Source: Acidimicrobiales bacterium (lineage in GTDB: Bacteria; Actinomycetota; Acidimicrobiia; Acidimicrobiales; WLNW01). From it: a stretch of DNA of 64,000 nucleotides. The notes beneath the pieces were generated by a model. That model worked only from the letters and a program-made list of their open reading frames with translations, did no database searches and was not told where the DNA came from. Below are positions 19,894-52,366 of this stretch, in pieces. The stretch covers positions 128,180-192,179 of the forward strand of contig DATLFA010000061.1 of assembly GCA_035525225.1 (NCBI GenBank), given 5' to 3'. A program made the translations under genes and the position numbers. Within the stretch, counting starts at the first letter, position 1. The number at the start of each line of letters is the position of its first letter.

Positions 19894-21168
19894 GTGGCTG
19901 AACCGAGCGTCGACTATTCGCGGCCCAAGGGCACGCGCGACATCCTGCCGCCCGAGTCGCAGCGCTGGCGCGGGCTCGTCGGTGTCTTCGCGGACGTCGT
20001 CGAAACCGCCGGCTACGGCCACGTCGTGCCCCCCATGTTCGAGCACGTCGAGGTCTTCCACCGCATCGGTGAGGCCACCGACGTCGTGGCCAAAGAGATG
20101 TACGAACTGACCGACCGCGGCGGGCGCCGACTCGCGCTGCGCCCCGAGCAGACGGCGTCGGTCGTGCGCATGTTCGTCGAGAACCGCCCGAACGTGCCGT
20201 GGAAGGTCTGGTACGCCGGGCCCAACTTCCGCGCCGAGAACGTACAAAAAGGTCGCTACCGGCAGTTCGATCAAGTGGGCATCGAGGTGTTGGGTGTCGA
20301 CGATCCGTACCTCGATGTCGAGGTCATCGCGCTGGCGTGGCGGTTCTACGAGCGACTCGGGCTGACGCAGGTGCGTCTGGTGCTCAACTCGCTCGGCGCC
20401 GCCGGCGATCGCGGCCGCTATACCGAAGCGTTGCGCGAGTACTTCGGCCGTCACCTCGACGCGCTGTCGAGCGAGTCGCGCGAAACGCTGAACCGCAACC
20501 CGTTGCGCGTGCTCGATTCGAAGCGCGAAGTCGACCGCGAGATCGTCGTCGGCGCCCCGCGCCTTCGCGACTTCCTTTCACCCGACGCGGCTGCCGACTT
20601 CGAGACGGTGCAAGAGGGACTGCGGGCCCTCTCGATTCCATTCGACGTCGACGAACGCTTGGTGCGCGGGCTCGACTACTACCGCAAGACCACGTTCGAG
20701 TTTGGCGCCGGCGCGCTCGATGCCGCGCAAAACGCGGTCGGAGGTGGTGGCCGCTACGACGGGCTCGTCGAGGAGATGGGTGGTCCGCCGACCCCCGGCG
20801 TGGGCTTCGCAATCGGCGTCGATCGCACGTTGTTGGCATGCGACGCCGAAGGTGCCTTTGCTGCACCGGTGGCTGGTGTCGATGTCTTCGTCGTCGACAC
20901 CACCGGCGGGCGGCACGCGTCCGCGCTCACCGACGAGCTCTGGCGCGCCGGCATCAGAGCCGACCGCGCGTACGAGAACCGTTCGATGAAGGCACAGATG
21001 AAGGTGGCCGATCGTTCCGGAGCCGCGGTCGCCTTGATCGTCGGCGGCGACGAAGCCGAAGCGGGCGTCGTCACGGTCCGGCCGTTGCGCCGCCGCGAAG
21101 GCGAAACTGCCGCACAACGCCAGATCGCGCGGGCCGAAGTCATAGTCGAACTGAAGAGGACACTGTGA
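19894..21168 (+). CDS. hisS: Histidine--tRNA ligase
   Basis: Track ORF of 424 aa. PKGTRDILP, LRPEQTASVVR, FRAENVQKGRYRQFDQVG and GGGRYDGL are class II HisRS motifs. Confidence 0.95.
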   Translation: MAEPSVDYSRPKGTRDILPPESQRWRGLVGVFADVVETAGYGHVVPPMFEHVEVFHRIGEATDVVAKEMYELTDRGGRRLALRPEQTASVVRMFVENRPNVPWKVWYAGPNFRAENVQKGRYRQFDQVGIEVLGVDDPYLDVEVIALAWRFYERLGLTQVRLVLNSLGAAGDRGRYTEALREYFGRHLDALSSESRETLNRNPLRVLDSKREVDREIVVGAPRLRDFLSPDAAADFETVQEGLRALSIPFDVDERLVRGLDYYRKTTFEFGAGALDAAQNAVGGGGRYDGLVEEMGGPPTPGVGFAIGVDRTLLACDAEGAFAAPVAGVDVFVVDTTGGRHASALTDELWRAGIRADRAYENRSMKAQMKVADRSGAAVALIVGGDEAEAGVVTVRPLRRREGETAAQRQIARAEVIVELKRTL

Positions 21169-21211
21169 AGAGGGCACTGTGATTAGGACATCCGTGAAGA
21201 GGACATCGTGA
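21155..21211. repeat. Four tandem 14-15 nt units (AGAGGACAYYGTGA) bridging the hisS stop and the aspS start
   Basis: Units at 21155-21168, 21169-21182, 21183-21197 and 21198-21211. Each ends in GTGA. The first GTGA contains the hisS stop and the last contains the aspS start. Confidence 0.9.
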
Positions 21212-22974
21212 AGAGCTCTCGTATCACGCTTTCGCGCAGCACGTCGTTGCGAACCGACATGTGCGGTGAGCTGCGCGCTGCCGATGCGGGTCGCTCTGTC
21301 ACCGTGTGCGGCTGGGTATATCGCCGCCGCGAGCACAGCGAGCATCTGGCATTCGTCGACGTACGCGACCACACCGGCATCGTGCAGTGCGTCGTCGATG
21401 GCGCACGTGAGCTCCGCGGCGAGTATGTCGTGCGCATCAGGGGCACGGTGGCCCTGCGTCCCGCCGAGAACATCAACGACAAACTGGCGACGGGGGAGAT
21501 CGAGATCCACGATTGCACGGTCGAGGTGCTCTCCGCCGCAGAGACGCCACCGTTCACGATCGACGACCGCACCGACCAGGTCGATGAGAACGTCCGACTC
21601 CGTTATCGCTACCTCGACCTCCGACGCGACCGCATGCAGCGCAACCTGAGAATCCGGGCGGCCGTCAACAGCGCGATCCGGTCTGCGATGGAGCGGCAGG
21701 GCTTCGTCGAAGTCGAAACTCCCATGCTGATGCCATCGACCCCGGAGGGCGCTCGCGAGTTCCTCGTACCGTCGCGCAAGGAACCAGGCTCGTTCTACGC
21801 ACTCCCACAGTCGCCGCAACTCTTCAAGCAATTGTTGATGGTCGGTGGATTCGATCGCTATTTCCAGATCGCGCGGTGCTTGCGCGACGAGGATCTGCGT
21901 GCCGACCGGCAGTACGAGTTCATGCAACTCGATGCCGAGATGAGCTTCGTCGATCAGGACGATGTGCTCGAAGCGATCAGCGAAGCAGTGCTCGACGCGG
22001 CCCAGGTGACCATCGGTGAGCGCCCCGACGTGATCCCGCGCATGACCTGGCACGACGCCATGGATCGATTCGGCGTCGACAAGCCCGACCTCCGCTTCGG
22101 GATGGAACTCGTCGAGCTCACCCCGATGTTCGCCGCGACGTCGTTCAAGGCGTTCGCCGGGGCGGCGGCGATCAAGGCCATCCGCCACGCCGGGGCATCG
22201 TCGACGACGTCACGCAACCAGCTCGACGCGCTCACCGATCGCGCGAAGAAGATCGGTGCCAAGGGTCTCGTATGGATGCGTGTCGGCGACGAACGGGTCC
22301 TCGATTCGCCGGTCGCCAAGTTCCTCTCCGACGACGAAAAGTCGGCGATCGTCGCGGCGACCGATGCGCAGCCGGGCGACATGTTGTATCTCGTCGCCGA
22401 CGAATGGGCAATGACGTGTGACGTGCTCGGGCAACTGCGCAACGACCTGGGTCGCCCGCCCGTGCATCAAGGTCCGTACCGCTACGTGTGGATCGTCGAC
22501 TTCCCGATGTTCGTCGGCGTCGATGCGGTGACCGGCATCCCCAAACCGGCACACCATCCGTTCACCCGCCCGCATCCCGATGACATCAACCGCCTCGAGA
22601 GCGATCCCATGTCCGTGCGATCACGGGCCTACGACTTGGTGCTCAACGGCTGGGAGTTGGGCTCGGGTTCGATCCGTATCCACGAGCCCGAGTTGCAACA
22701 ACGCATCTTCAACCTGTTGGGCATCGCCCCCGACGAAGCGATGAAGCGATTCGGCTTCTTCCTCACGCCGTTCCGCTATGGCGCGCCGCCCCACGGCGGG
22801 TTCGCGTTCGGCATCGATCGCCTGGTGGCAATCCTCGCGGGTGAAGACAACATCCGTGAGGTCATCGCGTTCCCCAAGACGCAATCGGGCACCGATCCGA
22901 TGACCAACTCGCCGACGCCGGTCGACCCCAAGCAGTTGGCCGAACTGGGCTTGCGCGTCATCCCTCGCGCGTAG
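21208..22974 (+). CDS. aspS: Aspartate--tRNA ligase
   Basis: Track ORF of 588 aa with a GTG start. LAFVDVRDHTGIVQ (OB fold), FYALPQSPQLFKQLLMV, FQIARCLRDEDLRADRQ and GGFAFGIDRLV are class IIb AspRS motifs. Confidence 0.95.
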   Translation: MKSSRITLSRSTSLRTDMCGELRAADAGRSVTVCGWVYRRREHSEHLAFVDVRDHTGIVQCVVDGARELRGEYVVRIRGTVALRPAENINDKLATGEIEIHDCTVEVLSAAETPPFTIDDRTDQVDENVRLRYRYLDLRRDRMQRNLRIRAAVNSAIRSAMERQGFVEVETPMLMPSTPEGAREFLVPSRKEPGSFYALPQSPQLFKQLLMVGGFDRYFQIARCLRDEDLRADRQYEFMQLDAEMSFVDQDDVLEAISEAVLDAAQVTIGERPDVIPRMTWHDAMDRFGVDKPDLRFGMELVELTPMFAATSFKAFAGAAAIKAIRHAGASSTTSRNQLDALTDRAKKIGAKGLVWMRVGDERVLDSPVAKFLSDDEKSAIVAATDAQPGDMLYLVADEWAMTCDVLGQLRNDLGRPPVHQGPYRYVWIVDFPMFVGVDAVTGIPKPAHHPFTRPHPDDINRLESDPMSVRSRAYDLVLNGWELGSGSIRIHEPELQQRIFNLLGIAPDEAMKRFGFFLTPFRYGAPPHGGFAFGIDRLVAILAGEDNIREVIAFPKTQSGTDPMTNSPTPVDPKQLAELGLRVIPRA

Positions 22975-22978
22975 CGGC

Positions 22979-22996
22979 GTTCGCTCGAGAGCGAAC
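22979..22996. terminator. Hairpin between convergent aspS and a hypothetical gene (candidate bidirectional terminator)
   Basis: GTTCGCT-CGAG-AGCGAAC gives a 7-bp perfect stem. It sits 5 nt after the aspS stop and abuts the stop of the minus-strand gene. Confidence 0.4.
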
Positions 22997-23736
22997 TACA
23001 CAGGCACGACGTCGAATGCGACGACAACGCTGTTGGGCGGCGCGCTGCGGAACTCCGTACTCGCGACGCCGTCGACCAGCGCGCCGATGGTGTTGACTCG
23101 CAACTCGACCGCGAGGCGCCCCCGCTTCGCGATCGCGGCAGTGTCGCCGATCGGGGTGACCGTGAGTCCGATGCGTTCGAGTTCTTCGGTGAGATTCGTC
23201 ATCACGACCAGTGCGGGCACCGACGTCGTGACGAAGTGCGCCCGCTGGCCGCGGTCGTATCGCATGTCGTGATCGGACAACGTGAGCGGCACCAATTCGC
23301 ACGGCATCTCGATGCCGGCGATCACCTGGCCGACGGTCACCGGCGCGGCGGCCGCACGAGCGATGGTGGCCACGCTCGACGGCGCGGGGGACGAGGTGGG
23401 CGCGACCGCGATGGTCGGCGGTGCGGCGGCGGGGGTGCGAGTTGGTGCGGGCGGTGCCGGCGTCGGTGCAGCGGGTGCCGGTGCCGCCGCGACCGCGATG
23501 GCGTCGTCGATCACCTCGGCGGCCTCGACCTCGGCGGCCTCGACCTCTGCGGCCTCGGTGGCGGCAGTGGCAGCAGCCGCGGCGCTGTCGTGGAGCGCGA
23601 CGCGCATCGCCTCGCGACGGATCCGACGCTCACGCCGCCGCCGGATGGACCGGCGCACGAGGATGACCACCGATGCGAGAAACCACATCCAGAACAGGAT
23701 CGCGATGACGACCATGGCAATCCCATCGGCATCCAA
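22996..23736 (-). CDS. Hypothetical membrane-anchored protein with an Ala/Pro-rich linker
   Basis: Track ORF of 246 aa. Start is TTG at 23736 or ATG at 23715. N-terminal helix VVIAILFWMWFLASVVILV, then a basic patch, low-complexity AAEVEAAEVEAAEV...APAPAAPTPAPPAP, and a C-terminal globular domain with no family I recognise. Confidence 0.55.
   Translation of the reverse strand: MDADGIAMVVIAILFWMWFLASVVILVRRSIRRRRERRIRREAMRVALHDSAAAAATAATEAAEVEAAEVEAAEVIDDAIAVAAAPAPAAPTPAPPAPTRTPAAAPPTIAVAPTSSPAPSSVATIARAAAAPVTVGQVIAGIEMPCELVPLTLSDHDMRYDRGQRAHFVTTSVPALVVMTNLTEELERIGLTVTPIGDTAAIAKRGRLAVELRVNTIGALVDGVASTEFRSAPPNSVVVAFDVVPV
23513..23557. repeat. In-frame 15-nt x3 minisatellite inside the hypothetical gene (encodes AEVEA repeats)
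   Basis: ACCTCGGCGGCCTCG appears twice, followed by ACCTCTGCGGCCTCG. Confidence 0.85.
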
Positions 23737-26591: not shown

Positions 26592-26661
26592 GCCAATGTG
26601 ACCAGCGGCGGATTATCGCCGCCAATGTGACCAGCGGCGGATTATCGCCGCCAATGTGACT
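26592..26661. repeat. R1 element: 29-nt unit GCCAATGTGACCAGCGGCGGATTATCGCC, 2.4 tandem copies
   Basis: Identical copies at 26592-26620 and 26621-26649, with a partial third copy at 26650-26661. Each holds a small hairpin (CGGCGG-ATTA-TCGCCG) and ATGTGA. A related array lies at 34369-34426. Confidence 0.9.
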
Positions 26662-26672
26662 AGCCTGGTCGG

Positions 26673-34368: not shown

Positions 34369-34426
34369 CCGAACGGCGGATTATCGCCGTCAATGTGCCG
34401 AACGGCGGATTATCGCCGTCAATGTG
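34369..34426. repeat. R1 element: two tandem 29-nt copies (CCGAACGGCGGATTATCGCCGTCAATGTG)
   Basis: Identical copies at 34369-34397 and 34398-34426. They share the 23-nt core CGGCGGATTATCGCCG[C/T]CAATGTG and the same 29-nt period with the array at 26592-26661. Confidence 0.9.
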
Positions 34427-51378: not shown

Positions 51379-51966
51379 ATGAACCGACGGCCGCTGACGA
51401 TCGTCTTGTCGGGCGCCGGCGGTGCGGGCAAAGGCACGATCGCGCGTCGCCTCGCCGAGCTCGATCACACGTTGTGGCTGTCGCGTTCGTGGACGACGCG
51501 TTCGCCTCGCGTCGACGATGCTCCGCTCGCGTATCGCTACGCCACCCGAGAAGAGTTCGAGCGCCATCGCGAACGTGGGGGGTTCCTCGAGTGGAACCAA
51601 TTCCACGACAACCTGTACGGCACCCCGGTGCCCGACCCGCCGGCCGGACACGACATCCTGCTCGAGATCGACGTCAACGGCGGGCGGCAAGTGCGCCGGC
51701 ATCATCGCGACGCTCTGTTGATCTTCGTCGAGGCACCGTCGGTGGAAGAACAGCGCCGGCGGCTGTTACGCCGGGGCGATTCGCCCGTGCAGGCCCAGGC
51801 CCGCATCCGCGAGGGCGACCGCGAGCGGCGCGACGCGAGAACGCTCGGCTACCGCTTCGTCGTCAACGACGACCTCGACAGGGCGGTCGCAGAGATCCGT
51901 CAGGCCATCGAGGAACGCCGCCCGCCGCGCAAAGCGGGCGAGCCGGGGCCAACAGTGAGACAGTGA
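51379..51966 (+). CDS. gmk: Guanylate kinase
   Basis: Track ORF of 195 aa. P-loop SGAGGAGKGT, SWTTRSPR, FLEWNQFHDNLYGTP and the overall Gmk pattern. Confidence 0.85.
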   Translation: MNRRPLTIVLSGAGGAGKGTIARRLAELDHTLWLSRSWTTRSPRVDDAPLAYRYATREEFERHRERGGFLEWNQFHDNLYGTPVPDPPAGHDILLEIDVNGGRQVRRHHRDALLIFVEAPSVEEQRRRLLRRGDSPVQAQARIREGDRERRDARTLGYRFVVNDDLDRAVAEIRQAIEERRPPRKAGEPGPTVRQ

Positions 51967-51997
51967 GGGCCAACAGTGAGGGCCAACAGTGAGGGAC
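51946..51997. repeat. 13-nt tandem repeat (GGGCCAACAGTGA) spanning the gmk stop; four GTGA motifs
   Basis: Full copies at 51946-51958, 51967-51979 and 51980-51992, plus an 8-nt partial GACAGTGA at 51959-51966 that contains the gmk stop, and a trailing GGGAC. Confidence 0.9.
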
Positions 51998-52075
51998 TCG
52001 GCCCCTGATCTGATAGCGTTCAACGGGCCGATTTCGGCAGTTGCCGCGCGTCTCGCGCTGTGAACAGGAGTGTTG

Positions 52076-52366
52076 ATGGCCGAGCGCACTGACATGATGA
52101 CCCAGCCCCCGATCGAGGAATTGCTCGATCGCGCCCAGTCGAAGTTTCGCTTGGTGACGCTTTCGGCAAAGCGGGCCCGCCAGATCAACGCCTACTACGG
52201 GCAGTTGGGCGAGGGCCTGGGGTCCTCCATCCCTCCGCAGGTCACCTCCACGGCACGCACATCGCTCTCGCTGGCGTTCCAAGAGATCGCGGCCGACAAG
52301 ATCGTCGCAATCGAGCCGGCCGAAGTAACCGAAGAGGTCGCGGCCGAGGAGCAAGGCGACGCCTGA
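52076..52366 (+). CDS. rpoZ: DNA-directed RNA polymerase subunit omega
   Basis: ATG 52076 follows CAGGAG (track ORF starts at TTG 52070). IEELLDRAQSKFRLVTLSAKRARQIN. Confidence 0.9.
   Translation: MAERTDMMTQPPIEELLDRAQSKFRLVTLSAKRARQINAYYGQLGEGLGSSIPPQVTSTARTSLSLAFQEIAADKIVAIEPAEVTEEVAAEEQGDA

Follow-up and report, generated by a model that had tools for sequence, protein, structure and literature searches.

A tandem reiteration of the hisS/aspS overlap forms a chain of overlapping mini-ORFs in an Acidimicrobiales genome

The genes hisS and aspS, encoding histidine--tRNA ligase (HisRS) and aspartate--tRNA ligase (AspRS), are neighbors on a 64,000-nucleotide (nt) stretch of DNA from an Acidimicrobiales bacterium (GenBank assembly GCA_035525225.1, contig DATLFA010000061.1, positions 128,180 to 192,179), which is referred to here as the window, and the subject of this study is the short tandem array that separates them. 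All features of this junction are on the forward strand. The hisS open reading frame (ORF) spans 19894-21168 and encodes 424 amino acids (NCBIfam TIGR00442, E 3.9e-127) with its TGA stop codon at 21166-21168, and the HisRS it encodes is an exact match to NCBI HUP75324.1, from an Acidimicrobiales metagenome-assembled genome (MAG). The aspS ORF spans 21208-22974 and encodes 588 amino acids (NCBIfam NF001750, E 1e-227), beginning with the GTG at 21208. Between the two genes are two mini-ORFs. Mini-ORF 1 (21165-21182) reads GTG AAG AGG GCA CTG TGA, which gives VKRAL, or MKRAL if it is GTG-initiated; its start shares the bases GTGA with the hisS stop, and its stop shares GTGA with GTG21179. Mini-ORF 2 (21179-21211) begins at that GTG, consists of 10 codons and a stop (VIRTSVKRTS), and ends with a TGA at 21209-21211 that overlaps the aspS start GTG21208. 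The GTGA overlaps at 21165-21168, 21179-21182, and 21208-21211 give all three junctions the -4 NTGA geometry. A further in-frame GTG, GTG21194, is present inside mini-ORF 2 because the third unit of the array is 15 nt long. An earlier note on this DNA, made from the letters alone, had named the flanking genes as hisS and aspS and had placed the mini-ORFs and their overlaps at these positions. The profile matches confirm the genes, and the sequence, ORF lists, and translations agree on every coordinate of the array.

The mini-ORFs lie within a repeat that Tandem Repeats Finder reports at 21152-21215 with a period of 14, 4.5 copies, and 80% matches. The same program also gives a 29-nt period for the array, and a separate repeat search of the window found three in-register copies there. 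Unit 1 (CTGAAGAGGACACT, 21151-21164), from which the HisRS C-terminus LKRT(L) is translated, is the ancestral copy. It carries the Shine-Dalgarno (SD)-like sequence AAGAGGA at 21154-21160 and is identical in the related loci L001, L002, L163, and L166 (L numbers denote the hisS-aspS loci compared in this study). Three extra units follow, namely unit 2 (GTGAAGAGGGCACT, 21165-21178, 14 nt), unit 3 (GTGATTAGGACATCC, 21179-21193, 15 nt), and unit 4 (GTGAAGAGGACATC, 21194-21207, 14 nt). The array then closes with a partial unit from 21208, GTGAAGAG, which is the first 8 bases of aspS, and the earlier note was right that the aspS N-terminus opens in the same way as the units. The heptamer TGAAGAG recurs at 21152, 21166, 21195, and 21209. 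When the window was scanned with the unit pattern, 8 matches were found in total compared to 1.16 expected by chance: those at 21151, 21165, 21179, and 21194, and four scattered matches elsewhere in the 64 kb with 2 mismatches each.

The start of aspS is GTG21208. Its frame is closed upstream by a TAG at 21184-21186, the conserved RTD.CGELR block has no other start ahead of it, and the gene caller of a Logan assembly with the same array also places the aspS start at the last GTG. Two downstream candidates were rejected. TTG21247 is CAG, CTG, or TTT in relatives and has no SD (duplex +1.1 kcal/mol), and use of ATG21259, which also has no SD (duplex +0.1 kcal/mol), would delete the conserved RTD motif. 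The AspRS profile match starts at residue 13-15, and therefore residues 1-14 are a lineage-specific extension. Among ten sequences of the genus, the variable sites in aspS codons 2-17 number 2, 3, and 11 at the first, second, and third codon positions, a distribution that indicates that the N-terminal extension evolves as coding sequence. Also, at L167 (1872-1923) the call of the Joint Genome Institute (JGI) begins aspS at an internal ATG (M18) instead of the overlapping GTG at the end of hisS, and the 571-amino-acid aspS call in a second JGI contig, which encodes P0125, implies an M18 start there as well. An M18 start would lose the conserved RTD, and systematic mis-annotation of the aspS start in this genus is likely.

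A genome scan found hisS directly upstream of aspS throughout the Acidimicrobiia. The two closest genomes, L001 and L002, have AspRS proteins 95% and 94% identical to that of the window, and their junction reads ...GAACTGAAGAGGACACT|GTGAAGAGCTCTCG, with a single GTGA common to the hisS stop and the aspS start. When the window was aligned with these two sequences, a 43-column gap fell exactly opposite 21165-21207, which corresponds to three extra units (14+15+14). The junction of the close relatives, ...GAACTGAAGAGGACACT|GTGAAGAGCTC, is a direct GTGA overlap at the point where the window has 43 additional bases. The array was not found in ten distinct relative junctions with HisRS 85-93% identical (L001, L002, L082, L083, and L163-L168; L169-L171 match L083 at the junction), all of which have the direct GTGA overlap. 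Apart from the genomes L001 and L002, these loci come from contigs of the genus in metagenome and ENA/JGI data. The window array is therefore a derived insertion of three extra units, and it almost certainly originated as a lineage-specific reiteration of the ancestral hisS/aspS overlap. This is the origin that the earlier note had proposed, and the unit counts across related junctions bear it out, with no extra unit in ten sequences, a perfect additional 15 nt in L162, and three extra units here. As for further carriers of the array, a Logan assembly (L081) of run SRR8556377 is identical over 291 aligned bases spanning it, which brings the number of assemblies found for the species of the window to two, identical at the array and possibly from the same sample. 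An exact scan of metagenome DNA for CTGAAGAGGACACTGTGAAGAG gave no match. An exact look-up of the window AspRS gave no record, and HisRS was used as the query for exact protein look-ups instead.

The single-copy junction of the relatives also suggests how the array was formed. It contains TGAAGAG twice, 14 nt apart, once in the Lys-Arg codons of the HisRS LKRTL and once in the Lys-Ser codons of the AspRS MKSS. Slipped-strand duplication of a 14-nt unit classically starts from a pair of this kind, and TGAAGAG is likely to have been the seed for such slippage, which is the mechanism proposed here. Units 3 and 4 share the variant ACATC, and a secondary duplication has therefore probably taken place. 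The locus has the features of a slippage-derived variable number tandem repeat (VNTR), with head-to-tail copies, flanking microhomology, and a copy number that differs among close relatives. In L162, from another species within the genus with a HisRS 92% identical to that of the window, TGAAGAGGACACTGT is present twice at 2250-2290 as a perfect 15-nt duplication. The duplication is in frame, HisRS gains LKRTL (P0001, 429 amino acids), and the GTGA overlap with aspS is kept. It is an independent event at the same junction, and because a sister lineage has its own duplication, the junction is a duplication hot spot. Additionally, aspS in the P0125 contig is called 14 nt farther from hisS than in L167 by the same pipeline, which suggests that this contig holds one extra 14-nt unit, going by the gene-call distance alone and assuming the M18 start.

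Each GTG of the chain has an SD-like motif at the same distance, as GAGG or AGGA ends 5 nt before each of GTG21165, GTG21179, GTG21194, and GTG21208. The AAGAGGA of unit 1 that precedes GTG21165 has a predicted duplex energy of -5.8 kcal/mol, AAGAGGG at 21168-21174 before GTG21179 has -6.3 kcal/mol, AGGA at 21185-21188 before GTG21194 has -3.9 kcal/mol, and AAGAGGA at 21197-21203, the SD-like motif of aspS before GTG21208, again has -5.8 kcal/mol. These energies use the canonical anti-SD ACCUCCUUU, which was assumed since the 16S gene lies outside the window, and the strength of the three stronger sites is reached at about 7-12% of the positions in the window and that of the -3.9 site at 24%. 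The unit in front of aspS rebuilds the motif of the relatives at the same 5-nt spacing, and the spacer bases alone differ (ACATC vs ACACT). This aspS motif is conserved in all relatives within the genus, purine-rich motifs are found upstream of the overlapped aspS start across the Acidimicrobiia, and other -4 gene pairs in the window also have GGAG-type motifs. By its motifs, each unit is a complete coupling cassette, which holds a stop and a start and also the SD that belongs to the next start in line.

The regularity of the chain is largely a matter of geometry. A unit that starts with GTGA and has a length of 3n+2 puts the TGA of the next unit in frame with its own GTG. A constructed perfect array yields one 5-codon ORF per unit, with three steps for three perfect units, and a 15-nt unit reads through into the next unit, as unit 3 does. 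The overlaps were copied from one ancestral GTGA, and therefore what the earlier note called a perfect relay amounts to one duplication fact; the three GTGA overlaps are real, but they are not three independent events. When a perfect array was subjected in simulation to 4-7 substitutions, with or without one insertion, at unconstrained positions only, the hisS stop and the aspS start were still linked by an unbroken chain in 26-55% of the neutral-mutation trials. The window array alone is therefore no evidence of selection, and no case for selection on the relay is built on it.

The reading that we consider probable is that the array is a lineage-specific tandem reiteration of a translational-coupling module, and that translation of aspS is kept up by SD-assisted reinitiation through the mini-ORFs together with de novo initiation. 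In the ancestral state, still seen in all other members of the genus that were sampled, the hisS stop and the aspS start share one GTGA, and the HisRS Lys-Arg codons AAGAGGA double as the aspS SD. Slippage between the TGAAGAG heptamers would have duplicated the 14-nt module, followed by expansion and by drift of about 5-7 substitutions and one 1-nt insertion. A GTGA-initial unit of 3n+2 length gives a chain of -4 mini-ORFs automatically, while hisS still ends at its own stop and the motif, spacing, and start codon of aspS are unchanged. A ribosome ending hisS would sit on GTG21165 with the ancestral SD behind it and reinitiate on mini-ORF 1, end there five codons on at GTG21179, translate mini-ORF 2, and end on the aspS GTG. 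In parallel, free subunits would bind the last SD and initiate aspS de novo. The mini-ORF peptides would themselves have no role, and the array would be tolerated or nearly neutral rather than an adaptive device.

A relay by termination-reinitiation is plausible by analogy, in that experiments in other organisms have demonstrated coupling for the -4 NTGA geometry that each of its steps has (Huber et al. 2019, PMC6728339). In E. coli, two gene pairs lost 80-90% of reinitiation when set +38 nt apart and a third pair lost all of it, and the experiments in E. coli and Haloferax put the gap that abolishes reinitiation at about 20-40 nt (Huber et al. 2023, PMC10666635). Given the effect of +38 nt in E. 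coli, direct reinitiation over the 39 nt of the window is unlikely, and either a relay or de novo initiation would be needed. That the mini-ORFs are translated is a prediction from the DNA, as is any division of aspS initiation between the relay and de novo entry, and we rate real ribosome traffic through the mini-ORFs at slightly better than an even chance. An adaptive role for the copy number of the array is doubtful.

Several points weigh against this reading. The array is carried by one genome lineage only, and the two assemblies that represent it may be one sample. The outcome of the neutral simulation means that the window's own array carries no sign of selection, and it has only 8 free GTGA positions, which is too few for a conservation test. 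The SD energies depend on an anti-SD that is the assumed canonical one, as the window does not contain the 16S rRNA tail. Ribosome losses could multiply over three reinitiation steps in series, and the SD in front of aspS might be enough to sustain its translation by de novo initiation only.

A comparison across the class puts the array in a wider setting. The junctions compared were the 105 (loci L001-L167 and the window, almost all of them from Acidimicrobiia) in which both the end of hisS and the start of aspS could be located, and a chain was defined as successive ORFs from the hisS stop in which each start overlaps the previous stop (-4 or -1). By this definition 62 of the 105 junctions reach aspS directly by a -4/-1 overlap, 25 are bridged to aspS by one to three mini-ORFs, and about 12 have a true gap; apparent chain breaks in L081 and L166 were set aside as truncated contigs. 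Among de-replicated junctions with a spacer, 22 of 36 have unbroken chains, compared to 6.2 ± 1.9 expected (maximum 12 in 500 shuffles) when the spacer up to the conserved RT codon was shuffled with dinucleotides preserved. A conservative null that shuffles only to the start of the aspS BLAST match, and leaves the terminal junction intact in several loci (probabilities 1.0), gave 24 of 36 unbroken before de-replication compared to 11.0 ± 1.9 expected. These statistics handle phylogenetic non-independence only crudely. Tandem arrays are present at four of the junctions seen, the window included, with an NTGA in each unit. The other three are in L115 (1434-1480, 15 nt, 3.1 copies), L120 (1334-1447, 29 nt, 3.9 copies), and L138 (1319-1453, 29 nt, 4.7 copies). 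The units of L120 and L138 are homologous, with the same base at 21 of 29 positions, and both contain a short hairpin, CCCCG-NNNN-CGGGG. Their NTGA overlaps are at different positions of the unit, yet both chains are unbroken. The enrichment of chains may come from selection for uninterrupted translation from hisS to aspS, or it may come from a tendency of spacers to originate by junction duplication.

The strongest alternative, which we regard as a real possibility although clearly the less probable one, is that the array is a purely neutral minisatellite, that aspS is translated only by free 30S subunits at the last AAGAGGA-GTG, and that the mini-ORFs are incidental. The SD that precedes aspS has the ancestral sequence and spacing, the relay outlasts neutral drift in the share of simulations given above, and the array is missing from all relatives sampled. 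Also, no stable RNA structure that coupling would have to open was found in the array region (fold z = 0.19 vs shuffles). However, the ancestral state and the 62 directly overlapping junctions of the class are -4/-1 overlaps, and spacer junctions are unbroken far above shuffles, which suggests that coupling of hisS and aspS matters in the class. In addition, ribosomes that terminate hisS would sit on GTG21165 with an SD, and some reinitiation would be hard to avoid.

A more ambitious interpretation of the class-wide pattern, which can be put forward only tentatively, is that selection keeps hisS and aspS in one ribosome chain and that insertions persist only as overlapping mini-ORFs. The module would then be a self-copying coupling cassette, and through its copy number it could determine how much AspRS is made relative to HisRS or protect the mRNA from Rho. 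The 0, 1, or 3 extra units within the genus and the 29-nt and 15-nt arrays elsewhere would be instances of a MIRU-like principle (after the mycobacterial interspersed repetitive unit) that arises de novo from a gene junction.

The stronger claim about the window itself, that the copy number of its array tunes the AspRS:HisRS ratio or keeps the RNA covered by ribosomes against Rho polarity and that the chain has been selected, is unlikely. The window array has no measurable excess of GTGA conservation, and a 39-nt gap is short for Rho loading. The array is found in one lineage only, close relatives do well without it, and some members of the class have true gaps or broken chains. What speaks for such a role is the class-wide enrichment of unbroken chains, the homologous L120 and L138 arrays that keep the chain with shifted NTGA positions, and the proposal that tight overlaps suppress Rho termination in Mycobacterium tuberculosis (bioRxiv 10.1101/2022.06.01.494293).

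The earlier note had suggested that ribosomes pass from hisS to aspS across 40 nt by termination-reinitiation without an SD. The chain of three GTGA overlaps on which this rested is real, and in M. tuberculosis more than half of the ORFs initiated at NUGA or URRUG have no canonical SD (bioRxiv 10.1101/2022.06.01.494293). However, every GTG of the window chain has GAGG or AGGA 5 nt upstream, in a motif that is conserved in relatives, and removal of the SD strongly lowered reinitiation in four of five E. coli gene pairs (PMC6728339). The SD-independent version is contradicted by the sequence, is very improbable, and was abandoned.

An assembly or sequencing artefact is more improbable still, because although short tandem repeats are prone to mis-assembly and the genome is a MAG, the Logan assembly comes from a different pipeline and is identical, the units differ from each other so that reads place unambiguously, and the 64-nt array is shorter than a read. 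Equally remote is a regulatory leader for aspS in the form of a peptide attenuator, T-box, riboswitch, or protein-binding array. Genes for aminoacyl-tRNA synthetases often have leaders, but the window has no match to an Rfam family, the fold is no better than that of shuffled sequence, a search for a promoter and a terminator found none, neither of the mini-ORFs, which read VKRAL and VIRTSVKRTS, has a codon for Asp or His, and the element is missing from all relatives, whose junctions have no room for a leader; the leader, attenuator, and riboswitch readings were dropped on the first three of these grounds.

The closest known analogue of the array is the mycobacterial MIRU. The array is MIRU-like in working but is not a MIRU. 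The units of MIRUs range from roughly 46 to 101 bp, and the classic lengths of 53 and 77 bp are also 3n+2, whereas those of the window are 14-15 nt. The window unit is also not dispersed, being found only at 21151-21207 within the 64 kb, it derives from the junction (hisS C-terminal codons and the aspS start) and not from an inserted element, and it is found in another class of Actinomycetota. It has no apparent sequence relationship to MIRUs, as far as this can be judged without a comparison with their consensus. The likeness is that in both cases tandem repeats separate genes that are read in the same direction within an actinobacterial operon (for MIRUs, Supply et al. 1997, summarized in the review PMC12548453). 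As with MIRUs in the account cited from PMC12548453, the repeats of the window are intercistronic and each ORF overlaps the stop and start of its neighbors.

Taken singly, the hisS/aspS junction is an ordinary NTGA-coupled pair, which in the window is repeated as a junction-derived, MIRU-like coupling array. All three window junctions resemble the known pairs in having a -4 NTGA overlap and an SD motif that falls within the 3' end of the preceding ORF (PMC6728339, PMC10666635, PMC12548453). However, known pairs are single junctions between two real genes, whereas in the window the junction is repeated and the ORFs in between, one of 5 and one of 10 codons, would act only as stepping stones. 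The pairs that have been studied also tend to encode subunits of a complex, and HisRS and AspRS are separate enzymes. Short ORFs tied to the next by a 4-nt overlap are found in other high-GC actinobacteria. In Mycobacterium, short upstream ORFs are described as delivering ribosomes to the downstream gene (Shell et al. 2015, as cited in PMC12548453), and leaders of M. tuberculosis contain chained short ORFs with NUGA overlaps, for which the suppression of Rho termination by tight coupling was proposed (bioRxiv 10.1101/2022.06.01.494293). Those ORFs are likewise very short and non-functional in themselves, but they are located in 5' leaders, whereas the ones in the window are intercistronic and made by duplication of a junction. 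With slippage and VNTR loci the array has in common the head-to-tail repeats, the TGAAGAG microhomology seed, and 0, +1, or +3 extra units by independent events. Most such loci are neutral markers or in-frame coding repeats, whereas the window array spans a stop and a start and regenerates translation signals.

Other repeats were also seen in the window. A perfect 13-nt tandem repeat of ACAGTGAGGGCCA at 51952-51995 (2.8 copies) straddles the stop (TGA 51964-51966) of a forward-strand ORF at 51379-51966 and lies about 75 nt before another forward-strand ORF at 52070-52366. Its units contain GTGA but form no chain because the period is 3n+1. Two intergenic arrays have 29-nt units, one at 26592-26664 (2.5 copies, 97%) and one at 34369-34426 (2.0 copies, 100%). 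The core GGCGGATTATCGCC is exactly the same in both, with (C/T)CAATGTG after it, and the two therefore represent a small dispersed repeat family. Their units contain ATGTGA with a period of 3n+2, and GTG...TGA mini-ORFs chain within each array. These arrays were considered as further relays and rejected, as the internal chains are not joined to the stop or start of the flanking genes. Finally, a 15-nt repeat at 23513-23557 (3 copies, 96%) lies inside a minus-strand ORF at 22996-23736 and encodes EAAEV repeats in an Ala/Pro-rich protein.

The hisS-aspS junction of this genus provides a natural allelic series that consists of a direct overlap, an in-frame addition of 15 nt, and an addition of 43 nt in the form of two mini-ORFs. 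This series bears on the debated question of whether post-termination ribosomes can reach a start codon tens of nucleotides away. In contrast to the gaps that abolish reinitiation in E. coli and Haloferax, the gap at the window junction is filled with stepping-stone ORFs. It also shows that a MIRU-type intercistronic repeat can originate from the junction itself, because a unit of 3n+2 length that holds a stop, a start, and an SD is self-preserving. On a practical level, the results bear on the annotation of the aspS gene start. The interest of the finding is moderate and lies mainly in a test of the distance dependence of reinitiation and in the class-wide chain pattern, a regularity at one aminoacyl-tRNA synthetase gene pair for which there is no established explanation. 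Should selection lie behind that pattern, it would imply that the Acidimicrobiia have an as yet unexplained need to co-translate two aminoacyl-tRNA synthetases.

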